Source: a virus
Strand: one strand, 5' to 3'
IMG/VR virus record: IMGVR_UViG_3300050161_000195
DNA: 40,731 nt
Under the pieces are notes generated by a model. That model saw only the letters and a list, made by a program, of their open reading frames with translations. It made no database searches and was not told the origin of the DNA. Every line of letters begins with the position of its first letter. Within the stretch, counting starts at the first letter, position 1. Shown here piece by piece: positions 10,957-40,731 of this stretch. The translations under genes were made by a program, and so were the position numbers.

Positions 10957-11195
10957 TCGGCAATCCCGGCATAGTTGGGCAGGAGCGGTTGGCCCGGAAC
11001 CTTGTCGCCATGACCAAGCGTCCGCAGGGCTTCGGCATAGCGTTCGGCGGCCGCGCGCTGGGCGCGGGCAGTGGTCATGGCCAAGGCAGCCTGCCGCTCA
11101 TGTTCCTGTGCCTCCGCCGTTGCCTTACGGTAGCGATCGAACAGCACGCGCTCGGCCGTGCCCGGGTCAAACGGGTTGACGCGCACCCTGCTCAT
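10953..11195 (-). CDS. Hypothetical protein
   Basis: 80 aa. Start and stop overlap both neighbours. High GC3. Confidence 0.5.
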   Translation of the reverse strand: MSRVRVNPFDPGTAERVLFDRYRKATAEAQEHERQAALAMTTARAQRAAAERYAEALRTLGHGDKVPGQPLLPNYAGIAE

Positions 11196-12628
11196 TCGGT
11201 CGGCGCCCCTTCTTCAGTGTGGGCATCTTCGGCCTCGATCGCGGCCTCGGCCGCGGCTGCGCGGCGCGCCGCTTCGGCGGCGGCTTCTTCGTCGACCAAG
11301 CGTAGGGCTTCTTCGCGGCGGGCTTCCAGCTCGGCCACGGTGGTGCGGATCTGCACGGCGATCAGCACATGGTCATCGCTGGCATCGTCAGTTTCGACGG
11401 CGCACACCCATTCGTCCTGCGGCAAGATAAAATCGAGTGCCTGCCCGCTTTCGATCAGCTGGCGGGCGATCAATTGTCCCGCGCGAAACCCAGCTATCCT
11501 CTGGCGGCGGCGTTCTGCCCAATCCACTTCCTGAGGTGCTGGGAGCGCGTCACCCCCGGCCGGCGCCTCCTTCACCGGGCCGAAGTGGCCGAGGTATTCG
11601 AGCCCTTCGCCAGCGCCATCGATGCGATAGACGGCTACGCAGGGCTTGCGCTGGGCCTTTTTCGTGGCTTCCAGCTGGGGCCTCCAGCCCGTTACCTTCT
11701 CGAACCCATCGGGCGCCTTGGGCCAGTTCGGTGAGTGATCGTACCCGCCGAAGGACAGCAGGCCATCCTTGAACCCGTCCTTCTTGGCCTGCCCGCCCGC
11801 AAGCGTGGCGCCGTATTCCTTGGCCAGCTTTTCGAGCAGGGTCACGTCGATGATCCGTTCCTGGCCGGCATCGCCCATGAACATTTCGGCCTCGACCCGG
11901 CCGCCAGCGGCACGGTAATCATCGAGGCCGACGAAGCGGACCAGCTTGGAATCCAGCGGCAAGGTGCGGCCGCGCATGGCATCGCGGACGGTGGGCGCGT
12001 GGTGGGGCTGCCACTTGGCCTTTTCCTGGGCGGCGAAGACCTTGAGCTGGTGTTCGTGATCGCTGGTGATCGCATAGGCCTTGGCGCTTTCCACGCCGAT
12101 CTTGCCGGTGCGCAGGGCATCCAGCACTTCGGGGGCGAGGGCGGCGAGGCGCAGGCGACCTTCGACATGGGTGCGGGTGACGCCGAAGCGTTTGGCGCAG
12201 GTGGCGATCGGATCGCCCTCGCCCTTCTTCTCGGCCTGGTCGACGATCGCGGCGAAGGCTTCGAATTCGTCGGCCGGGTTCATGGCCACGCGGTGGAGGT
12301 TTTCCGAAAGGCTGGTCTGCCTTGCGGACTCGCGCGGTTCCACCATGACGGGCACGGGCCAATCGTGCTCCAGCCTGCCATCCTCGGCGAGCAGCTGCAG
12401 CGCCTGGAGGCGGCGGCCGCCGGCGACGACCTCGAACTTGTCGCCATAGTTGCTGCCTTCGGGCAGATCGACCGTGGAGAAATGGGCCGGGATGACGACC
12501 AGGTTCTGCTTCAGCCCGCTGGCGGCGATGTCTTCGGCCAGGGTGGCGATATCGGCATCGCGTTCGGTCTGGCGAACATTGAGCGTGGACAGGGCGAGGC
12601 AGTGAAGCGGCAGGGTCTGCATGGACAT
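11192..12628 (-). CDS. ParB-like nuclease/partition domain protein
   Basis: 478 aa from ATG 12628 (GAGGAT RBS; the track ORF extends to 12820). N-terminal LNVRQTERD...IAASGLKQNLVV...FEVVAGGRRLQAL ParB/Srx-type motif. Acidic Ala-rich C-terminus. Confidence 0.75.
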   Translation of the reverse strand: MSMQTLPLHCLALSTLNVRQTERDADIATLAEDIAASGLKQNLVVIPAHFSTVDLPEGSNYGDKFEVVAGGRRLQALQLLAEDGRLEHDWPVPVMVEPRESARQTSLSENLHRVAMNPADEFEAFAAIVDQAEKKGEGDPIATCAKRFGVTRTHVEGRLRLAALAPEVLDALRTGKIGVESAKAYAITSDHEHQLKVFAAQEKAKWQPHHAPTVRDAMRGRTLPLDSKLVRFVGLDDYRAAGGRVEAEMFMGDAGQERIIDVTLLEKLAKEYGATLAGGQAKKDGFKDGLLSFGGYDHSPNWPKAPDGFEKVTGWRPQLEATKKAQRKPCVAVYRIDGAGEGLEYLGHFGPVKEAPAGGDALPAPQEVDWAERRRQRIAGFRAGQLIARQLIESGQALDFILPQDEWVCAVETDDASDDHVLIAVQIRTTVAELEARREEALRLVDEEAAAEAARRAAAAEAAIEAEDAHTEEGAPTE

Positions 12629-12671
12629 GGTGGCGATCCTCAAATCGTGAAGGGGGCGGGGCGCAGCGCGA

Positions 12672-13696
12672 TCAGGCCTTGAGCTTGCAGTGGGAATCGC
12701 GGCAGGCGTTGACCTCGGCATGGGTGCACATGCGGTCGCACTGGTCGCAGAAGGCCTTGCCGCTGCGGGCGAGCGCGGCGATCGCCGCGGGGGAAGCCGC
12801 CCGGGCCGGGGCGCTGGCAAGGGGGGGCGTGGTTACGACCGGCGCTGCCCGGGATGAAGGCGGGAGAGCAGCGCCGGTCGCGCCAACCTTGCCGCGCGCC
12901 TGGTCAATGATGACGCGGGCGAGGGCGGCAGGGCCGGAAAGGACGGGGTAGCGTTCGCGGAAGATCTTGCCCCGCAGGATCCAGCCATCGGGATCGGCCT
13001 TGGCCAGGCTGGCGATGATGGCGGCGGCGCTGTCCTGCTCTTCCAGCAGGTTGACGAACAGGAAGCCCAGCGCATTGAGCAGGGTGGCGGCCTGTCGGAC
13101 CGGCTGATCCGGGTAGGCGGCGCGCAGGGTGGTGAGGCCGAAGCGGACAGCGTCGGCGCTCTTTTCGCGCAGCTGGCGGACCAGCATGGGCGCGCACTGC
13201 AGTTCACCCGGGCCGTAGGAGGCGACATTGGAATGGCGGCGGATGGTCCACCCCGTTTCCGCGATCATGTCCTGCACCAGCTTGGCATCGGCTTCGCCAG
13301 CGGCGAGCATGCCGAAGAAGATATCGGCCTGGCTGAGCCGCTGGCGCTGTTCGTTGAGGGCGACGAAGGTCTTGGCCTCTTCGCTGATGGCGATGCCGCC
13401 CAGGATCACGCAGGGCAGGTGCGGGATATCGCCCCGCGCGGCGGCGCCGGCGTGGCGGCCTGTCCATCGAGGATGAACAGGCCGCCATCGGCCCGGCGGC
13501 TGACCACCAAGGGCTGGCACAGGGTCCAGTCCCAGCCCTTGACCATGGCGGCGATGATCTTGCGCGAGGCCGGGCTATCGGTGGCGCGTTGATAGGCGCG
13601 ATCGACCGAAAGGCGATCGACGGAGCACCATTCCAGCGAGGGCGGATTGCCCTGTTGCGGTGGAAGTTGCGTTTCCTTTGCGGGGGTCTTGGCCAT
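12672..13696 (-). pseudogene. ParB N-terminal-like (DGQHR-type, DUF6551-like) gene split by a frameshift near 13452-13465
   Basis: Frame A (13696..13406) ends ...GGLFILDGQ then out-of-family sequence and a stop. Frame B (13520..12672) continues with GRHAGAAARGDIPHLPCVILGGIAISEEAKTFVALNEQRQRLSQADIF. Together they read as one ParB-like domain. Cys-rich C-terminus CDQCDRMCTHAEVNACRDSHC. Confidence 0.6.
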
Positions 13697-13770
13697 GGTT
13701 CAGTCCTTGGCGGCGCGGCGAGGTTCGATCGCGGCGAGGGTGGCAAAACAGGCGATGAGGAGCAGCGCGG

Positions 13771-14244
13771 TCACGCCGCCAGCCGATCGAATTCGGCATG
13801 GACGGGGGCGAGGGCCAGCAGGGTATCGGCGTGGCACCATTCGCTGGTGAGCGGGCACCAACAGGCAAGATCATGCCCGGCCAGCTGGTGCAGCCTGGTC
13901 ATCACCCGTTCGTGCAGGCGGTGGAGGCCATCGATCTCGGCCGGGTGAAAGCCCATCCGCTCAAGGGTGAGATCGCCGACCCTGCCGGCCAGCCATTCCT
14001 TATGAAGGATGACCGAGCGGGCGTGGTTCACGCCCCGGCCCTGGAAGGGATTGCCCCAGATCGTGGGGCGGCCGACATAGATTGTGCCTTCGGGCAGGAC
14101 ACTGCCCTTGCGGCGGGGCCGCTGGATGCGCTGGGCGCGCGGAACAGGGCCAAGGGTTGAACGCGGGGGCAAAGCCCCCGGCGTTCCGAGATGGCCCAAA
14201 GTGTACTCACACACTGGCCATCTCCACTGCGGCAAGTTCAACAT
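13771..14244 (-). CDS. DUF4326 domain protein
   Basis: GRPTIWGNPF and LACWCPLTSEWCHADTLLALA motifs. The true start is probably internal (GTG overlapping the upstream stop at about 14211), because 14207..14244 overlaps the preceding gene. Confidence 0.8.
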   Translation of the reverse strand: MLNLPQWRWPVCEYTLGHLGTPGALPPRSTLGPVPRAQRIQRPRRKGSVLPEGTIYVGRPTIWGNPFQGRGVNHARSVILHKEWLAGRVGDLTLERMGFHPAEIDGLHRLHERVMTRLHQLAGHDLACWCPLTSEWCHADTLLALAPVHAEFDRLAA

Positions 14245-15298
14245 CGATCAGCTGGAACAGCGTTTCGGCGAAGGCTTTCCAAGCCGCCGCCGCTTCCGCC
14301 GCCCAAGCCGCCGCTTCCGCCGCCCAAGCCGCCGCTTCCGCCGCCGCTTCCGCCGCCCAAGCCGCCGCTTCCGCCGCCCAAGCCGCCGCTTCCGCCGCCG
14401 CTTCCGCCGCCGCTTCCGCCGCCCAAGCCGCCGCTTCCGCCGCCCTAGCCGCCGCTTCCGCCGCCGCTTCCGCCGCCGCTTCCGCCGCCCAAGCCGCCGC
14501 TTCCGCCGCCCTAGCCGCCGCCCTAGCCGCCGCTTCCGCCGCCCTAGCCGCCGCTTCCGCCGCCGCTTCCGCCGCCCAAGCCGCCGCTTCCGCCGCCCTA
14601 GCCGCCGCCCTAGCCGCCGCTTCCGCCGCCCTAGCCGCCGCCTTTGCCTCCTCCAGGCCCGTCCCGGTCTGGAGCGCGGTGCACACCTGATCGCAGGCCG
14701 CCACCACGCCGGGCCAGTATTCCGGCGGATTGTCCTGGTGAACCGCGCTGGCGGCGCTGATGGCCTGCCTAACGCCCGCGATCAGCAGGCCGGTCTGGAT
14801 GCGATCCCAGGCGGCATCGTCCAGGGCGTGCCAGCGGGCGGCGCGGTCGATCAGTTCGCCGCTGAACCACAGCACCTGGTCCTTGGCGATACCGTCATCG
14901 ATCGCGGGGACCAGCGATGCCATCCATGGGGGCATGAGGTCCGCCGGGCAATCGCCCGACCCGTTGATATCCGGCCCGAAGGCGGCGAGGGCGCAGACCA
15001 GTTCGCGGCCCTGTTCATCCTGGGTGCGCCAGGTGTTCTGGGTGATCGTGCCGGCGGCATGATACCCGCGGGCGAGAGCGATGCGATCGGCGATGGTGAG
15101 GGTAGGCGCAGTGGTCGTGTCAGCCATGATCGGCTCCTGTTGGGGGCTGGTTGAGAAGGGGAGGTATTTGCGCCACCAGGGCAGCCGCTTGCGGGCGCGC
15201 CATTCGGCCATCGGCAGCGGCTTTTCCGCCGGGGGCGGCATGGCCGAGCCGGTGTTGAGCGACCGGGCGTGCTGCGCGACGGTGTAGGCGCGGGCCAT
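14207..15298 (-). CDS. Hypothetical protein with C-terminal (E/R/W)-polyalanine repeat region
   Basis: 363 aa if started at ATG 15298, which overlaps the upstream TGA; GC3 stays high from there. An alternative ATG at 15127 has a perfect AGGAG RBS. The track ORF runs to 15640. Confidence 0.65.
   Translation of the reverse strand: MARAYTVAQHARSLNTGSAMPPPAEKPLPMAEWRARKRLPWWRKYLPFSTSPQQEPIMADTTTAPTLTIADRIALARGYHAAGTITQNTWRTQDEQGRELVCALAAFGPDINGSGDCPADLMPPWMASLVPAIDDGIAKDQVLWFSGELIDRAARWHALDDAAWDRIQTGLLIAGVRQAISAASAVHQDNPPEYWPGVVAACDQVCTALQTGTGLEEAKAAARAAEAAARAAARAAEAAAWAAEAAAEAAARAAEAAARAAARAAEAAAWAAEAAAEAAAEAAARAAEAAAWAAEAAAEAAAEAAAWAAEAAAWAAEAAAEAAAWAAEAAAWAAEAAAAWKAFAETLFQLIDVELAAVEMASV
14281..14650. 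repeat. Nested in-frame tandem repeat (12-nt and 9-nt modules; 87-nt higher-order duplication at 14463-14549 / 14550-14636)
   Basis: The array is built only from GCCGCTTCCGCC, GCCCAAGCC, GCCCTAGCC and GCC. Confidence 0.95.
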
Positions 15299-15432
15299 CA
15301 CTCGCAGTGGACCTTGGCGCATTCGTATTTGAACACGGCGTGGTCGATCTGGGTGAGGATGGGCCAGCCCACGATCTGCACGGCGGCGATGATCAGGACG
15401 GCGAGCACGATATCGCGCGGGGAGAGCGCCAT
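15298..15432 (-). CDS. Small membrane protein (44 aa)
   Basis: MALSPRDIVLAVLIIAAVQIVGWPILTQ... AAGGAGG RBS. The ATG overlaps the upstream TAA (TAATG) and its stop overlaps the next ATG. Confidence 0.5.
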   Translation of the reverse strand: MALSPRDIVLAVLIIAAVQIVGWPILTQIDHAVFKYECAKVHCE

Positions 15433-15911
15433 TACGCGGCCTCCTTTTCGGTGCAGGGCACGGTGATCGCCGGGGGCGGGACATCGTGGCGGCCATTGGG
15501 ATCGAAGCGCAGGTGGCGGGCGAGATCGGCGAGGGCGACGGCGGCCGCGCATTGCTCCGGCGTTTCGAGCGGGCCGTGCAGGGCATCGTCGCGCGCCTTG
15601 GCCAGCACCGGGGCCCAGAGGCGGCGGGGGCAGATTTCATCGGCCAGCAGCCCGCGCGCCTCGGCCTCAGTCACGTCCTTGCGGGCATCATTGGGCCAGA
15701 TCTGGACCACGCGGCGGCCGCAGAGGCCATCTTCCAGCTCGGGCAGATCGGCGCCGACCAGGCAGGCGATGGCCAGCCACGGGCGCAGGTGATCGGTGGC
15801 GCGGCGGGCATCCATGAGCCCGCTGCGGACCAGTTCGCGCGCCTTGGCCTGCCGCTGGCGGAATGCCTGGGCGGCGGCGCGGGAGATATCGGGTTCGATG
15901 GTAGGGGACAT
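15432..15911 (-). CDS. Hypothetical protein, first gene of the leftward operon
   Basis: 159 aa. GGAGG RBS. Located just downstream of the putative leftward promoter. Confidence 0.6.
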   Translation of the reverse strand: MSPTIEPDISRAAAQAFRQRQAKARELVRSGLMDARRATDHLRPWLAIACLVGADLPELEDGLCGRRVVQIWPNDARKDVTEAEARGLLADEICPRRLWAPVLAKARDDALHGPLETPEQCAAAVALADLARHLRFDPNGRHDVPPPAITVPCTEKEAA

Positions 15912-15942
15912 GGGTGCCTCCGTCTGTGACGGGGCAGCTTAT

Positions 15943-15992
15943 GGTGTGACAATGCACACCATGTCAATCTAAAAAGTGTGGTATATCACACT
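15943..15992 (-). promoter_or_regulatory. Leftward early promoter with operators O1 (15943-15960) and O2 (15975-15992)
   Basis: GGTGTG-ACAATG-CACACC and AGTGTG-GTATAT-CACACT palindromes, centres 32 bp apart. A minus-strand TTGACA (-35, plus coordinates 15962-15967) lies 1 nt upstream of O1. Confidence 0.6.
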
Positions 15993-16713
15993 ATCCGAAG
16001 AAGCGCTTCCATAGGGAAGGTTTGGGCTGGCGGATCGGTGCGACGAGAGTCGGTCTGATCCGGGCGGCCCCTTCAAGCCTTTCGATCAACTCGGCATCGG
16101 TGAGGATCGGCGCGTTGTATTTGGCCAGAAGTTCGCGGCTGGATCGGCAGAATTCGGCATGCAGTGTGGCGAGGGCCTCTACGGGCATTGCCCGGGTGAC
16201 TTTGCAGGACGGGCAATCAATGGCGCTGTCCGAGGTGATGCCGCCCAGCGGGAGGTTGTATATGGCCCCGCATTCGCAGGTGATCGGGATTATCATCGCC
16301 GAAATTATCATGGCCAGATGATCGGGAGCGGCGGCTTTGGTTGGCGCCGAAGTTGCGGGGGCCGTGAGGGTGGTTCTTTGCGATGGACCAGACCGGCCGT
16401 ATGTCCGGTGGGGGAGATCATCATCCGTAAGGGTCACGTCGAGTACGACGCCAAGGGCGCCGCCGGGGGCGCGGGCGATGTCCTTAATGGTGGCGGTGAC
16501 GCCCCGGCCTTGATCGAATATGGCATCGCGAAGCCAAGATGATCTTGCAATATAGCCGATGGTTTTGCCGCAGGCATTTTCTACGCGCAGCGCTTGGCTG
16601 TCGTAAGGGTTGCCTTCTTCGAAGCATATCCAAGCCCGTTCACCTGGTGATGTGCGACTTATTTCGGTCTGGTAGTTCGTTTCTCCGACTATCCCGACCG
16701 AATATAATTTCAT
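15991..16713 (-). CDS. HIRAN domain protein with C-terminal zinc-ribbon-like CxC...CxxC
   Basis: 240 aa from ATG 16713, which overlaps the repressor stop (ATGA). VGETNYQ...EEGNPYDSQALRV...GKTIGYIARS is the HIRAN signature. ITCECG...CPSCK follows. GC is lower than the surroundings. Confidence 0.8.
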   Translation of the reverse strand: MKLYSVGIVGETNYQTEISRTSPGERAWICFEEGNPYDSQALRVENACGKTIGYIARSSWLRDAIFDQGRGVTATIKDIARAPGGALGVVLDVTLTDDDLPHRTYGRSGPSQRTTLTAPATSAPTKAAAPDHLAMIISAMIIPITCECGAIYNLPLGGITSDSAIDCPSCKVTRAMPVEALATLHAEFCRSSRELLAKYNAPILTDAELIERLEGAARIRPTLVAPIRQPKPSLWKRFFG

Positions 16714-17318
16714 GATGTGCGTCTCGGCTTTTGTCGCACCCATCGGACTGGGGCGGCCCAGGCTACTTCCTGGTCTTCCATATCGGGCGCATTGAGTGAA
16801 CGAAGGGTGTAGCGGCCCGGCATGGTGCCGCGCGCAAATATCTTGAGGAACGTTCCGCCTTCGAGTGTGCGAACGGCGCAATATTCGCCGATTGCATCAG
16901 GGCTGATGCCATCGACCGTGCGATCGACGTAGACGATATCGCCATCCTCGTACTTCGGAAGCATGGAATTCCCGACGACCTGGAGCGCCATAATCTTGCC
17001 GTGCGCACCGGGCGGACGCGGGGCAAAATCATCGCTTTCATGATCGTCGCCGTTGAACAGCACTTCGCCACCCGCGCCGATGCGCCCCGATAGTTTCAAC
17101 TGTGGTTCGCTGATCAGATCATCAATGGTGATATCGAACACCTCGGCCAGGCGTACCAAGGTGCCCACGCGCACGTCGGATCGTTTGGCTTCAAAGATGT
17201 CGCGAATCGCCGTCTCGCCCAGCCCGGCCTTTTTGGCTAGCGGCTTACGCTTGATGTTGTGTTCATCCATCAGGCTTTGCAGCCGCGCCTTGAAGGCCTC
17301 GATGTCGAACTCTGTCAT
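16710..17318 (-). CDS. cI: CI/LexA-type repressor (XRE HTH + S24 peptidase)
   Basis: 202 aa from ATG 17318 (MTEFD...). HTH is KKAGLGETAIRDIFEAKR. S24 Ser is in VVGNSMLP and Lys in TFLKIF. Candidate Ala-Gly cleavage site in RIGAGGE. Confidence 0.9.
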   Translation of the reverse strand: MTEFDIEAFKARLQSLMDEHNIKRKPLAKKAGLGETAIRDIFEAKRSDVRVGTLVRLAEVFDITIDDLISEPQLKLSGRIGAGGEVLFNGDDHESDDFAPRPPGAHGKIMALQVVGNSMLPKYEDGDIVYVDRTVDGISPDAIGEYCAVRTLEGGTFLKIFARGTMPGRYTLRSLNAPDMEDQEVAWAAPVRWVRQKPRRTS

Positions 17319-17395
17319 GTGTGACATTTCACACATTTTTTGCCCTCGCCGACAGTCAGGACGTTTCACACCTTGACGGTGTGCAATATCACACC
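17318..17395. promoter_or_regulatory. Divergent immunity region with operators O3 (17318-17335) and O4 (17378-17395) and the rightward promoter
   Basis: TGTGTG-ACATTT-CACACA and GGTGTG-CAATAT-CACACC. A plus-strand TTGACG (-35, 17373-17378) abuts O4. A degenerate half-site TCACACC lies at 17365-17371. O3 covers the repressor start codons. Confidence 0.65.
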
Positions 17396-17409
17396 TTATG
17401 AGGGCGGGC

Positions 17410-17610
17410 ATGGCACTGCTCGATGACATTGAAGCTTTCCTGGAAGCGAACGCAGATGTGAGCCCGACCGCGCTTGGCGATCGCGCCTTGGGTGACCGCC
17501 ACTTTGTGCGCCAATTGCGCGGCGGTCGCCGGGTATGGCCGGAAACAGAGGCCAAGGTTCGGCAATTCATGGCCGAGCATTGCTCCACCGCAGACCAGGC
17601 GGAGGCCTGA
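17410..17610 (+). CDS. Small early regulator (Cro/CII position)
   Basis: 66 aa from ATG 17410 (GAGGG RBS; alternative ATG at 17398). It is divergent from the repressor. Function is assigned from position only. Confidence 0.55.
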   Translation: MALLDDIEAFLEANADVSPTALGDRALGDRHFVRQLRGGRRVWPETEAKVRQFMAEHCSTADQAEA

Positions 17611-17743
17611 GCGATGGGGGGGCAGGTATATCTGAATGGCGATAGCCGGATCGGGGCGGCGGCGCTGGCTGGCGCGGTTCGATCCTTTGAATTTGCACAG
17701 CCCCACGGGTTCAAGGCGCACTCCCGGCGCCTCCGTCTGGGGC

Positions 17744-17790
17744 GCGGGGCTGGCCTTTTTTGCCCCAAGGCCAGCCCCGCCTCTGTTTTG
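17744..17790 (+). terminator. Intrinsic terminator-like hairpin after the first rightward gene
   Basis: 12-bp GC stem (17744-17755 / 17769-17780), 13-nt loop, then CTCTGTTTTG. Confidence 0.55.
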
Positions 17791-17836
17791 CTGCGTGATC
17801 ATGCCCTGGCCAATAGCGCGCGGAAGGAGCGGGATC

Positions 17837-18268
17837 ATGGCTGATGTGCCGCTGCCCGGCCGGGATTCCATTGAAGCGCAGCGCGAGATGTTCCGCATGG
17901 CGGCGCGCGATTGCGGGTTGACGATCGCGGCGATCGCGCAGCGCAGCCCGCTCAAGGAATCGACCCTGAAGGGATGGCGCGATGGATCGGCCATGCCGGC
18001 CTGGGCGCTGGGTGCGCTGGGCGAGGCCGGGGTGCCGGATCATCTGCTTTCGATGGTCCTTGCTCCGTTTGGCCGCCATGTGGCGACCGACAGGATCAGC
18101 GATGGCGATCTGGAAGAGCTGGGGCGCGAGAGCGCCCATTATCTGGCGGATCATGCCGATGCGCGGGCCGATGGGACGATCACGCCAAGCGAGCGCAGCC
18201 GCCTGAGCGAAGGCGCGGCGCGGCTGGCGGGGATCGCCATGCGCGTGGCGCGCGGGGGGCGGGCCTGA
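17837..18268 (+). CDS. Hypothetical early protein with HTH-like segment
   Basis: 143 aa from ATG 17837 (GGAAGGAG RBS). LTIAAIAQRSPLKESTLKGW. Confidence 0.6.
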   Translation: MADVPLPGRDSIEAQREMFRMAARDCGLTIAAIAQRSPLKESTLKGWRDGSAMPAWALGALGEAGVPDHLLSMVLAPFGRHVATDRISDGDLEELGRESAHYLADHADARADGTITPSERSRLSEGAARLAGIAMRVARGGRA

Positions 18269-18765
18269 TGCTTGGTGTGGGCGCCACGCTTTATGCCGAC
18301 CTGGACCAGTTGCTGGCTTGGTGGGCCGTGGCCCGGCCGGGCGGCATGGCAGTGCGATGGGCATCGGGCGCGGTGCTGGATGATCTGCATCCGGCGGCGG
18401 CCCAGGTGAACGAATGGCGCAGCGCCGGCATGGCCGAGGTGTGGTCGCAGGACAGCGCATCGGGCCGCGTATGGCTGGTGCGAAAGGCGGGTGAGCCAAG
18501 CGCGGCGGAAATTCGCGATGTGACAGGCGCGGGGCGGTTGTTGGCCTTTCTGCGTGGCGCGGCCGATGGAGGCCGGTGCCCATCCTATGGCGAAATGGCC
18601 GAGGCGCTGCAGCTGCGGAACCGGCAGGCGGCACGGCATCTGTTCAACCAGCTGGTGCGCAAGGGCGCGGTGCGGGTGAGCGGCGAGGCGGCGGAGCGCA
18701 GGATCGAGATCATGGCCGGCGTGGCGCCGGCGCACCGGCAACCGCAGGTGGCCGACACGGGGTGA
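18268..18765 (+). CDS. Hypothetical early protein
   Basis: 165 aa from ATG 18268, overlapping the upstream stop (TGATG). Winged-helix-like C-terminal part (YGEMAEALQLRNRQAARHLFNQLVRKGAV). Confidence 0.55.
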   Translation: MLGVGATLYADLDQLLAWWAVARPGGMAVRWASGAVLDDLHPAAAQVNEWRSAGMAEVWSQDSASGRVWLVRKAGEPSAAEIRDVTGAGRLLAFLRGAADGGRCPSYGEMAEALQLRNRQAARHLFNQLVRKGAVRVSGEAAERRIEIMAGVAPAHRQPQVADTG

Positions 18766-19712: not shown

Positions 19713-20169
19713 CACCGAGTTCCAGGAGCGTTGGCCGGGTTACAACGATCAATCTTGGCCCGAGCGTTTCGCGGAACTTGATCGCCGCTTTCGGGCGGAA
19801 AAGGATTTGAAGTTGGCCCATATCGCGGCCCGCAACACCCGCCCTACCGTGGAAAGCGAGCCGGTGGCAAGGCGCGAGTTCATCGAGCGCATACGCGACG
19901 AAACCCGGCACTTTGCAGGTCCAGAAGTTCAAAAAGGGTTCGTGGACGCTTGCAATGCCATCTTGGCACTGATGGTCCATGAGCGCCCCGCACCGCCTGC
20001 TGATGCTGGGCTGGTGGAGCTGCTGACCAAGGCGGTTGGCGACATTGCTGCCGCGCTGACTATGGCGGGCAAAGATGCGCTGATCCAGCGATGGACCGGG
20101 CCCTACGTCGAAGCACTCAATGCTCATGACGAAGCCGCCGCCCTCATCGAAGCCCGAGGGGAAGGGTAA
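19699..20169 (+). CDS. Hypothetical protein
   Basis: 156 aa from ATG 19699 (the track ORF starts at 19654). GC is somewhat lower locally. Confidence 0.5.
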   Translation: MDSTDTEFQERWPGYNDQSWPERFAELDRRFRAEKDLKLAHIAARNTRPTVESEPVARREFIERIRDETRHFAGPEVQKGFVDACNAILALMVHERPAPPADAGLVELLTKAVGDIAAALTMAGKDALIQRWTGPYVEALNAHDEAAALIEARGEG

Positions 20170-38652: not shown

Positions 38653-39099
38653 ATGACCCAAGCTGTCCCCGGCAATAGTGCCGATGCGCCCATCCCGGCA
38701 ACGGGAATTTCTGTCGATCTTTCCCGCCGCGCCATGCTCGGCGGCGCCGCTCTCGCCGGGGTGCTGCTCGCCACGCCGGCTCTGGCCTTGCCCAGCGCAG
38801 ACCCCGACGCCCGGTTCTGGCCTCTTCATGCCCGGTGGCAACATTTGGAAGAGGCATGGGACGGGGATGATGGGCTTGCCGGCGGTGATGATGATGCCGT
38901 ATGGGATGCCGCCGCAGCCGAAGTCAGCGCGGCGTTCGATGCCATGATGCTGGCGCCGATCTCCACCGTGGCCGCCGTCCTTGCCAAGTTCAAGGCCTGC
39001 GCCGGGCAGGAAATCCTGCTCGATGATCGCAGCCTTACCACTCTCGATGCGATCGAACGTGATCTTGCCCGCCTTGCCGCTGCGGAGGGCCGGGCATGA
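38653..39099 (+). CDS. Tat-signal exported protein of unknown function
   Basis: Twin-arginine signal SRRAMLGGAALAGVLLATPALALP. GGAG lies 6 nt upstream of ATG 38653 (alternative ATG at 38641). Confidence 0.65.
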   Translation: MTQAVPGNSADAPIPATGISVDLSRRAMLGGAALAGVLLATPALALPSADPDARFWPLHARWQHLEEAWDGDDGLAGGDDDAVWDAAAAEVSAAFDAMMLAPISTVAAVLAKFKACAGQEILLDDRSLTTLDAIERDLARLAAAEGRA

Positions 39100-39509
39100 A
39101 CGCGCTGGCCACGGGGTGGGAACGCTTGCCGGAGGGAGAGCTCACCGCGCCGGCCGATTTCGAATGGGTCTATGCCTTCGGCAACGAGGGCGGCTTCCGC
39201 ATCGGCGCATCATCGTGCCCGGCCCGCGCCATGGCGGATCTGTACGGGCCAGTCGGCCGGCAGGATCGCTCCGCATGGTATATCCGGGGTTGGTACGAAG
39301 GGCACCGGGCGAAACAGGGCATTGCCGCCCATTTCGAACGGCGGCTGCAGGTCGGCGAATGGTTCATCGTGCCGATCAGCGAACTGTTGCAGGTAGACGT
39401 GCGCCGGCTCTGCGCCCGGCACCAGATCATGGGCGAAGGTACGCCCGAATATGCTGCCGAACTGGCCTTCCGGGCGGATCAGGCCCGTCACGCTACCGCC
39501 CTGACCTGA
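39096..39509 (+). CDS. T5orf172 / GIY-YIG-like domain protein
   Basis: 137 aa. WVYAFGNEGGFRIGASSCPARAMADL ... HFERRLQVGEWFIVPISEL matches the G..KIG.S..P..R...L ... EWF pattern. The ATG overlaps the upstream stop (ATGA). Confidence 0.6.
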   Translation: MNALATGWERLPEGELTAPADFEWVYAFGNEGGFRIGASSCPARAMADLYGPVGRQDRSAWYIRGWYEGHRAKQGIAAHFERRLQVGEWFIVPISELLQVDVRRLCARHQIMGEGTPEYAAELAFRADQARHATALT

Positions 39510-39600
39510 CCTGCCGCCTGACCTGACCTGATCGAACGAACCGAACCTCAATCCAGCCCCCGGTGCCTCGCGCCGGGGGCCAGAACCCGTTGGAGCAACC

Positions 39601-40731
39601 ATGGTCGATACCGATGTCAAAACCCTGATGCTCCAGGTCGATGCCTCGATCGAACTGCTGCGCAAGGAACTCGACGGCGGCGCCGGCGTGATGGACCGGT
39701 TTAGCGCCCGGGCCGGCACGATGGCCGATCAGGTGGAACGCGCGATCTCCACCATGGGCAAGAACTTCCCCAACCTCAGCCAGCGCGCCGCCGATGCCGC
39801 CAGCCAGATGGAAAAGGCCTTCAATGACAGCTTCGGCGCGATCCAGCGCATGGCTGATAAGGCGATCACCATGCCCGCGGTGAACGGCGGCGGGCTGGAC
39901 GTGGGCGCCACCGAAATGCGTGCGGCGGCCGATGCCGCCCGCACGCGGGCCGCCGCGCTGGAACAGATCGAGGTGGCTGCCCAGCGCGCGGCGGCGGGCG
40001 AAGGCGTGATGACTGCGGAAACCCGCGCCTATCTTCAGGCCGCACAGGCCGCCCGGATTGAGGCTGAAGCCCACGCCCGCGATCTAATGCGTGAAGCAGG
40101 CGCGCTCGAACGGATCGAAATCGAACTGGGCAAGGCCGGCGCCGCGCAGCAGCTTATGGCTACCCGCGGCGCAGCGCTTCATCAGCAAACCGGCCTGCAG
40201 CGTGCCGGGATGCAGCAGTTGGCGTTCCAGATTTCTGACGTATCGACCCAGTTTTCCATGGGCACGCCGCCCATGCAGATCTTCGCGCAGCAGTCCTCGC
40301 AGGTCATCCAGGCAGTGGGGATGATGACCACGGAGAGCAAGGGGCTGCTCGGCATCCTTGGGAACCCGTGGACGCAAATCGTTGTCGCCGCGACAGTCGT
40401 ACTTGAACCGTTCATCGCCAAGCTATTCGACTCGCAGGATGCTCTGACCGGCATAGGAGACAAGGCTGAACAAGCGATGGAGCGCGTGCGGCGATCGTTG
40501 GCTCAGGTCTCCGCCATTACCGACGCCGCCGATGAAGCTACGAGGAAGAAGGTAGAGGCGATGGCTGAGGTAGCGCGCCTCAACCGCCAGATCACCCAAG
40601 CTCAGGGTCAACGCGATTCCTTTATTGAAGCAAACGGGTCTGAGGATGCAGGTGGTCTCAACTTCAACATCACTCGGCTCATGGCCCAGCGCGATGCCGC
40701 GCAAGAGGCGATTAAGCAGGCGGACAATTCT
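39601..40731 (+). CDS. Tail tape measure protein, 5' portion (continues at nt 128 of the window via the circular junction)
   Basis: ATG 39601 with a GGAG RBS. Open to the window end. GMQQLAFQISDVSTQFSMGTPPMQIFAQQSSQVIQAVG is a typical TMP core segment. The ORF is absent from the track only because it has no stop inside the window. Confidence 0.85.
   Translation, partial: MVDTDVKTLMLQVDASIELLRKELDGGAGVMDRFSARAGTMADQVERAISTMGKNFPNLSQRAADAASQMEKAFNDSFGAIQRMADKAITMPAVNGGGLDVGATEMRAAADAARTRAAALEQIEVAAQRAAAGEGVMTAETRAYLQAAQAARIEAEAHARDLMREAGALERIEIELGKAGAAQQLMATRGAALHQQTGLQRAGMQQLAFQISDVSTQFSMGTPPMQIFAQQSSQVIQAVGMMTTESKGLLGILGNPWTQIVVAATVVLEPFIAKLFDSQDALTGIGDKAEQAMERVRRSLAQVSAITDAADEATRKKVEAMAEVARLNRQITQAQGQRDSFIEANGSEDAGGLNFNITRLMAQRDAAQEAIKQADNS
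40605..40731. repeat. Terminal overlap, exact copy of 1..127
   Basis: See the first feature. Confidence 0.95.

Follow-up and report, generated by a model that had tools for sequence, protein, structure and literature searches.

We analyzed an alanine-rich tandem-repeat array in a gene on the minus strand of the virus record IMGVR_UViG_3300050161_000195 (IMG/VR), a stretch of 40,731 nucleotides (nt) that we call the window and to whose positions all coordinates refer. In our judgement it is somewhat probable that the array is a slippage-driven, frame-preserving coding variable-number tandem repeat (VNTR), and that it encodes an Ala-zipper helical arm in an unnamed family of prophage early proteins. 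The modular DNA of the array, its length alleles in near-identical phages, its place between two conserved protein elements and the predicted structure of the protein carry this proposal.

Modular structure and coding frame of the array

The gene and its parts, given in the direction of translation, are:

14207–15298, minus strand: longest plausible coding sequence, 363 amino acids (aa); its ATG overlaps the stop codon of an upstream 43-aa open reading frame (ORF) in the sequence TGATG and is the start chosen by the JGI gene caller
14207–15127, minus strand: family-core coding sequence, 306 aa (MADTTT), from ATG 15127, with an AGGAG Shine-Dalgarno sequence upstream
14651–15127, minus strand: conserved alpha-helical N-terminal domain (N-domain), about 155 aa, with the motif GRELVCALAAFGPDIN...DCPADLMPxW...DDG
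14279–14650, minus strand: Ala-rich VNTR array, 124 aa, modules AAEA (GCGGCGGAAGCG), AAW (GCGGCTTGG) and AAR (GCGGCTAGG)
14550–14636: 87-nt higher-order repeat, copy 2, exact match to copy 1
14463–14549: 87-nt higher-order repeat, copy 1 (29 aa), exact match to copy 2
14450–14476, minus strand: hairpin turn predicted with low confidence (residues 218–226), without Gly or Pro, AlphaFold2 predicted local distance difference test (pLDDT) below 50
14210–14278, minus strand: conserved 23-aa C-terminal helix KAFAETLFQLIDVELAAVEMASV, family motif LFxLIDxEL

Since a conserved C-terminal helix follows the array, the array is an insertion and not a tail. Read on the plus strand, positions 14286–14636 parse with zero remainder into the modules GCCGCTTCCGCC, GCCCAAGCC and GCCCTAGCC plus a GCC filler, the modules being 9 or 12 nt and the filler 3 nt long, and every length is thus divisible by 3. 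A preliminary description of this DNA had proposed a microsatellite of three modules and GCC with an exact 87-nt duplication, and the parse confirms it, together with its further statements that all modules are multiples of 3 and that Trp and Arg differ by one base (TGG and AGG). Tandem Repeats Finder reports nested periods of 9/21/33/54/66 across 14284–14642. In the 306-aa form the array comprises residues 160–283, with the composition A89 E19 W8 R7 K1 (A 72%, E 15%, R+K 6.5%, W 6.5%), and successive non-Ala residues are separated by 4 (20 times) or 3 (12 times) positions. The codons that punctuate the arrays of relatives, TAT/GAT and AGT/AGG/ACG, are likewise single mutational steps apart.

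The DNA of the array bears the marks of unit amplification. Its Ala codons are GCG (73), GCT (15) and GCC (2), whereas in the N-domain that this gene encodes GCC occurs 17 times and GCG 7 times; its Arg codon is AGG throughout, a codon that makes up 5% of Arg codons in the long ORFs of the window. When 14 loci were compared, GCG was the dominant Ala codon in 11 arrays, and repeated 15-mers covered 77–91% of the array in 12 loci, 69% in L004 and 0% in the degenerate array of L014, with none in the N-domain of any of the 14. Folded as single-stranded DNA, the G-rich array strand reaches −132 kcal/mol (z = −7.2), as expected for CGG-like repeats.

No stop codon interrupts the array in any of the six reading frames, and the coding frame therefore had to come from the flanks: the conserved upstream domain and the conserved downstream helix both place the array in the minus-strand frame. 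These flanks, together with the AlphaFold2 prediction described below, support the earlier assignment of the array as coding, in frame and helical.

The start codon is ambiguous. Nearly all homologues start at a Met equivalent to ATG 15127, and the 57-aa extension between ATG 15298 and ATG 15127 is lineage-specific, with no counterpart in relatives. It is basic and Pro-rich, and its 171 nt (15128–15298) have a third-position GC content (GC3) of 0.91 in the gene frame, by which it looks coding. The non-repetitive domain of about 230 aa previously placed ahead of the array is accordingly corrected to about 155 aa plus the 57-aa lineage extension; the array does follow it, and is itself followed by the 23-aa helix.

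Length alleles among near-identical phages

As judged by comparison of assembled sequences, the variation of array length among near-identical phages is real. L001 and L002 represent the same phage in two ENA metagenomes: 6.4 kb of upstream flank match at 99.95% identity and 1 kb of downstream flank at 100%, and what sets the two apart is one 78-nt in-frame indel inside the array. A third sample adds a 291-aa allele with the same gene layout, and there is a fourth allele of 343 aa, which gives the series 291/295/321/343 aa. In P0261, P0011 and P0260 the flanks are identical, and two, three and four copies of AAADAAY yield proteins of 215, 222 and 229 aa in steps of 7 aa; these arrays span 42–84 nt, less than a typical short read, which makes assembly collapse an unlikely cause. 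In further clusters, whose proteins share at least 90% identity, the lengths are 240/244, 225/239, 244/217 and 188/198/210 aa. The observed alleles differ by 12, 21 or 78 nt.

Repeat-number polymorphism among otherwise identical genomes was thus found between samples, in metagenome assemblies, and bears out the predicted length variability. The label "contingency-like" fits as far as copy-number polymorphism goes and fails for ON/OFF switching, every module being a multiple of 3. The units themselves also change: in L003, the closest IMG/VR relative, the N-domain is 75% identical and the C-terminal helix nearly so, and the array is built from wholly different units (AAAY, AAAD, AAR).

A large unnamed protein family

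A search with the non-repetitive part of the protein returned 50 homologues (E 1e-67 to 1e-40), mainly from Sphingomonadales genomes and metagenomes, and a profile search of 1.84 billion cluster representatives (50% identity) gave 759 clusters at E ≤ 1e-3 and 475 at E ≤ 1e-10. The sources are prophages and viral contigs, of Sphingomonadales and others. Members share a plan of a roughly 155-aa N-domain with two near-invariant Cys residues, a variable middle and a C-terminal LFxLIDxEL helix, and the window protein shows both conserved parts (GRExxC(A/L)LAA...CPAxLMPxW...DDG and the C-helix LFxxIDxE(L/I)). In the family alignments, C60, M65, P66, W68, D78, G79, W99 and W107 of the N-domain are invariant; in the C-terminal helix F291 is invariant and L290, I294 and E297 are at least 90% conserved. 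This helix is kept in the repeat-less homologues P0045, P0046 and P0048.

An Ala-rich stretch of at least 20 aa occupies the middle site in 108 of 190 sampled members. Array length ranges from 0 to 160 aa across the family, and the punctuating residues differ by lineage (W/R/E, Y/D/R/K, S/W, H/R, V/E and K/Y). At the level of sequence, the architecture is routine in a large unnamed family and not unique to the window, and the earlier view that it is unprecedented does not survive. The protein had also been called unplaceable, to be reconsidered if a known family with routine repeats were matched: no named family was matched, and the repeats are routine in an unnamed one, of 759 clusters, of which the protein is a member and not an orphan.

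Searches for a named relative were negative throughout. The window protein had zero matches in Pfam, PHROGs, NCBIfam and PADLOC, and no Pfam family was found consistently among 114 family members. Sequence-profile searches of the PDB gave a best E of 0.026, to a ribosomal protein and not significant, and the best Foldseek E values were 1.7 against the PDB and 0.11 against BFVD (the full model was compared with the PDB, the compact repeat-less model with the PDB and BFVD). No relative was detected by tblastn among GenBank phages, with the N-domain and a distant member as queries, or among PLSDB plasmids, with the N-domain; blastn of the region against GenBank phages matched solely the neighbouring DUF4326 gene, in mycobacteriophages. 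With the array peptide alone as query, no hit survived the low-complexity correction. A literature search found no description of the family, and the database names of homologues are "hypothetical protein" or evident mis-annotations.

Two members of the family, L015 and L016, lie as tandem paralogues about 4 kb apart on IMGVR_UViG_3300050505_000421 (137 kb), and both have arrays of the SAA(W/R/E) type. In three others (L008, L024 and P0266) the array continues out of frame into a tail without the conserved C-terminal helix; these are either frameshifted pseudogenes or assembly errors within the array.

Predicted helix and fold-back

The non-Ala residues of the window array recur with a period of 3.65 residues, and on a helical wheel at 100° per residue all Glu, Trp and Arg fall within roughly 180–340°, which leaves a broad pure-Ala face. 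The commonest spacing is 7 residues, for Glu and for Trp/Arg alike, and 11 is rare. Family-wide, 39 of 77 arrays have their periodicity peak at 3.4–3.8 residues; compared with shuffles, z exceeds 3 in 29 arrays and reaches 18.

AlphaFold2, run on the 306-aa form with an alignment of 36 sequences, gave a mean pLDDT of 87.9 and a predicted template-modelling score of 0.76. The model consists of a helical N-domain (pLDDT 84–97) followed by helices 158–219 and 226–305, which form an antiparallel hairpin. In the model of the repeat-less P0045 the C-terminal helix packs on the domain (pLDDT 94–95) after a 9-residue loop. Since in homologues without repeats a short loop connects the two helices between which the array is inserted, the ends of the array must meet, and a linear helical spacer between two domains, one of the roles suggested earlier, does not fit. 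The predicted geometry is either an intramolecular hairpin of about 9 nm or an antiparallel domain-swapped dimer rod of about 18 nm, between which monomer prediction cannot separate.

Pairing would presumably proceed through the Ala faces in an Alacoil-like manner; no obvious pattern emerged when a simple antiparallel register pairing Arg of helix 1 with Trp of helix 2 was considered. The array has a negative net charge in 24 members and a positive one in 13, and is neutral in 40, and this lack of conservation makes a general DNA mimic or decoy, another of the suggested roles, unlikely.

Comparison with known helical and repetitive systems

Antiparallel, alanine-packed coiled coils of the Alacoil or Rop type were reportedly described by Gernert et al. 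in 1995. The array resembles them in having Ala on the putative interface face, heptad-type spacing (7 being commonest) and a stripe period of 3.65, and in the two long antiparallel helices of the AlphaFold2 model (158–219 and 226–305, with a low-confidence turn). The helix axes of Alacoils are about 7.5–8.5 Å apart. Known Alacoils are short, fixed in length, non-repetitive and embedded in globular folds, whereas the array is a 124-aa perfect microsatellite of strain-variable length.

Antiparallel coiled-coil arms on globular domains are also known from the fingers of GreA and DksA and from the arm of seryl-tRNA synthetase, where length is fixed and the tips are functional. The likeness lies in the AlphaFold2 model, where a helical hairpin extends from a small globular domain; the array differs in its length, which varies from 0 to 160 aa, in having no conserved tip and in the lack of any sequence or fold match.

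Coding VNTRs and contingency loci are simple-sequence repeats in bacterial surface or virulence genes. The array shares with them slippage-prone perfect tandem units within a gene and copy-number alleles among near-identical genomes. Classical contingency loci switch ON and OFF through frame or promoter spacing, whereas units that are multiples of 3 change length only; the gene that hosts the array is a phage early gene, not one for a surface antigen.

Peptides of the (EAAAK)n type are rigid linkers, and the local sequence AAEAAAR resembles EAAAK/EAAAR, with E–R pairs possible from i to i+4. E/R/K single alpha-helix domains served as a further comparison (PMC5347031). Such helices are charge-dominated, monomeric and unpaired, whereas the array, with its 72% Ala, bare Ala face and Trp residues, is forced to fold back or pair; by composition it is not an E/R/K single alpha-helix.

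Type I fish antifreeze proteins are long amphipathic helices of more than 60% Ala that arose by expansion of Ala-codon-rich repeats (PMC3855684, PMC11687183). Ala-rich amphipathic helices, repeat expansion and convergent, lineage-specific units are common to both systems. One antifreeze protein, "Maxi", is a long helical hairpin that dimerises. Type I antifreeze proteins are secreted ice binders in which Thr recurs every 11 residues, whereas the array lacks Thr, spaces its E/W/R residues by 7/4/11 with 11 rare, and is an internal insertion, after a domain of about 155 aa, in a presumably cytoplasmic phage protein; it is not a type I antifreeze sequence and not homologous to one.

Genomic context

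The neighbouring features are:

13771–14244, minus strand: DUF4326 gene (Pfam PF14216, E = 4.5e-16, 59.7 bits against a cutoff of 25)
15298–15429, minus strand: 43-aa hydrophobic, transmembrane-like ORF directly upstream of the array gene, GC3 0.93
15432–15911, minus strand: 159-aa ORF, first gene of the local block, with a 36%-identical homologue at the same position in L003
15975–15992, minus strand: terminator-like hairpin and T-run between the HIRAN ORF and the 159-aa ORF, a consensus match only, the number of such matches lying within shuffle expectation

The minus strand runs from an S24/helix-turn-helix (HTH) repressor ORF through a HIRAN-domain ORF, the terminator-like hairpin, the 159-aa ORF, the 43-aa ORF, the array gene and DUF4326 to ParB/DUF6551-like genes, MT-A70 and integrase; primase and a D5-like helicase are on the plus strand. 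This order, with integrase, MT-A70 and ParB-like genes downstream of the repressor ORF, agrees with the early-region block originally described, as does the Pfam match of the DUF4326 neighbour. In L030 the array gene is grouped with replication genes on the Cro side of the switch, which makes "early" reasonable. Pfam scans of neighbours in more distant loci found only generic phage early genes (GapR, PAPS-reductase-like, DUF2786/DUF7168).

The DUF4326 ORF begins within the 3' end of the array gene: its start is ATG 14244 or GTG 14214, and the array-gene stop is at 14207–14209. The opening ATG is formed by the conserved "IDVEL" codons (ATC GAT GTT) of the C-terminal helix, and an identical 38-nt overlap occurs in two phages (14207–14244 in the window, 4875–4912 in L003); GTG 14214, which overlaps the stop codon of the array gene, is an alternative coupled start. 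DUF4326 also lies directly downstream in eight further loci (L003, L004, L005, L008, L010, L014, which is 44% identical, L029 and L030). As judged by this sequence arrangement, the array gene is probably operonic with DUF4326. Iyer, Burroughs, Anantharaman and Aravind proposed DUF4326 as a rhodanese-phosphatase clade acting in virus-host conflict, with terminal phosphates of ADP-ribose derivatives as substrates (PMC9503650).

Upstream, the small membrane protein mentioned in the preliminary description is present as the 43-aa hydrophobic ORF with its TGATG overlap, and its translational coupling to the array gene hinges on the ambiguous start; L003 has small hydrophobic ORFs at the matching position. 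The 159-aa ORF had no match in Pfam, PHROGs and other family scans. The HIRAN-domain ORF (15991–16881, minus strand) follows and overlaps the S24/HTH repressor ORF, ends at the terminator-like hairpin and has weak PADLOC PDC-M03B matches (E = 7e-5); it may be a repressor-linked module expressed in the lysogen.

Three further observations concern other parts of the window. A DUF6551/ParB-like gene (13059–13651, minus strand) is split by a 1-nt frameshift near 13457–13460: in a tblastn comparison with the intact L030 homologue the match passes from frame −3 to −2, and read-through restores a ParB-like "...DG..RHAGAAARGDIPHLPCVILG" motif. The frameshift is either an assembly indel or the mark of a pseudogene. 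The large ParB-like protein encoded at 11192–12820 (minus strand) has a C-terminal Ala/Glu/Arg-rich stretch, EEAAAEAARRAAAAEAAIEAED, at about 11200–11290, which coincides with small tandem repeats (Tandem Repeats Finder, 11230–11273) and appears to be a further, smaller low-complexity segment rich in Ala within the same operon. On the plus strand, a (CCTGA)n pentanucleotide run (39497–39531) at the end of ORF 39096–39509 places TGA stops in all three frames, and a GC-rich hairpin (39561–39580) follows it ahead of the next ATG at 39602.

Proposed mechanism and alternative explanations

We propose that replication slippage or unequal recombination among the perfect 9- and 12-nt GCG-rich units continually adds and removes units, which would be CGG-repeat-like and form hairpins as single strands. 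New units would arise by single-base changes of the punctuation codon (TGG to AGG in the window; TAT/GAT and AGT/AGG/ACG in relatives) and then be amplified. The product would be an Ala-rich amphipathic alpha-helix with an E/R/W stripe about every 3.65 residues, opposite a pure-Ala face. With the C-terminal helix returning to the N-domain, the two halves of the array would pair antiparallel through their Ala faces in Alacoil or Ala-zipper manner, and the arm would be an intramolecular hairpin, as in AlphaFold2, or equally a domain-swapped antiparallel dimer rod. Selection would maintain (i) the frame, (ii) the helical periodicity and (iii) the C-terminal helix, and would be indifferent to length and to the identity of the punctuating residues; the biochemical role would reside in the unnamed N-domain. 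The weakest step of the proposal is that the array gene and DUF4326 may share an early-phase function in host conflict or nucleotide signalling, which is suggested by their synteny and ORF overlap.

Several points weigh against this proposal. P0045, P0046 and P0048 have no array, and in 82 of 190 sampled members no Ala-rich stretch reaches 20 aa; the array is therefore dispensable for the core fold. Clean 3.6-residue periodicity is missing in about half of the arrays, and alignment within arrays is unreliable. The array offers no Gly or Pro for a turn, AlphaFold2 confidence falls to pLDDT 47 there, and the modelled hairpin may be an artefact of monomer prediction. DUF4326 is not beside the gene in L001/L002, L013, L016, L017, L026 and L027. 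Most length comparisons rest on short-read assemblies, which frequently fail at these arrays, and no experiment, named homologue or fold match points to any function.

It is plausible, although in our view less likely, that the array is a neutral passenger, a functionless slippage product in a permissive surface loop, where only frame and bare foldability are selected and length and composition drift. The members with short or no arrays would fit such drift, as would lengths of 0–160 aa without a preferred value, a codon usage that mirrors amplification history and not translational optimisation, the roughly half of arrays without clean periodicity, and the out-of-frame tails of L008, L024 and P0266. 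However, an Ala-rich helical segment recurs at one site in more than half of the members, across lineages that are 25–50% identical and use independent unit types, and periodicity z-scores reach 18. Distant members moreover keep a degenerate Ala-rich helical segment that is no microsatellite (L014, with no repeated 15-mers; alignment A5 is alike), and this conservation suggests that the segment is an ancestral, retained element.

Resizing and re-punctuation of the arm could instead be selected as an adaptive hypervariable surface in an arms race, by evasion of an immune sensor or retuned binding to a variable host target, a reading to which we assign little probability and which corresponds to the variable anti-defence factor of the preliminary description. 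Copy-number alleles among otherwise identical phages would be expected under it, as would the change of unit set from W/E/R to Y/D/R in L003 despite its 75%-identical N-domain, and the gene lies in the phage early region, coupled to DUF4326, itself proposed to act in counter-defence. However, the protein has no homology to known anti-defence or defence proteins, no cultured phage carries the family and hence offers a phenotype, mutation pressure alone explains the variation equally well, and the chemistry of the stripe is too heterogeneous for one conserved target. A long shot in the same direction is a telescopic arm: slippage would resize and re-punctuate an Ala-zipper rod, and the rod would determine how far a hitherto unrecognised phage early factor reaches, or how far apart its two N-domains stand in a swapped dimer. 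This factor would act with the phosphatase-like DUF4326 enzyme against host immunity based on NAD+/ADP-ribose, arm alleles being selected for escape or target matching.

A role at the nucleic-acid level, with coding incidental, is very unlikely. The array could be imagined as ParB iterons, as a G-rich/R-loop transcription modulator or as a recombination hotspot. The ParB-like genes downstream, the strong single-strand structure of the G-rich coding strand, the six open frames and the GCG bias in 11 of 14 arrays would fit a role of this kind. However, the unit DNA is wholly different between relatives, which nevertheless agree in where the array sits in the protein and in its Ala-rich helical nature, the arrays always return to the frame of the conserved C-terminal helix, no inverted repeats were found, and no RNA family matched in an Rfam scan of 13000–18500. 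With inverted repeats absent and unit DNA unconserved, we rejected a parS or iteron role.

Finally, the arrays are hard to assemble. Of 26 related loci, 13 run off a contig end, about 10 of them 50–120 nt into the array; contigs that stop in this way include L006, L007, L009, L011, L012, L015, L022, L023 and L025, many of them IMG/VR and GTDB contigs of about 35–90 kb. The JGI contig Ga0501155_037740 (L031) is 100% identical to the window from 17835 to 14633 (3203 nt) and turns chimeric at the first array unit, where it jumps to window positions 20102–20132, 5.5 kb away in the same phage. The exact 87-nt duplicate is difficult for short reads, and the copy number of the array, including this duplicate, is uncertain; the existence of the array in the window is secure. 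That the array itself is the product of an assembler deserves next to no credence, since arrays occur in dozens of independent assemblies, one of them on the single 4.0-Mb Sphingopyxis granuli record CP093335, short arrays (42–84 nt) give clean 21-nt ladders, and the array shares its reading frame with the conserved sequences to either side of it.

Implications

The analysis defines a large and wholly unannotated family of prophage early proteins, with no Pfam, PHROG or fold match and with DUF4326 as a conserved partner. What it contains are known phenomena, coding VNTRs and Ala-rich coiled coils, in a newly defined and previously undescribed protein family. The finding is more general than the preliminary description held: less unique, and more significant as a feature of a family. 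For viral genomics, the arrays are systematic short-read breakpoints (about 40% of related loci) that leave truncated or chimeric viral contigs and mis-called genes.

For protein evolution, the family is an unusually clean natural case of helix length set by a microsatellite, with ladders of single heptads between otherwise identical phages. Should the length of the arm matter functionally, the arm would be a structural element that can be tuned in the conflict between phage and host; should it not, the family would show how much neutral stretching an Ala-zipper helix tolerates.

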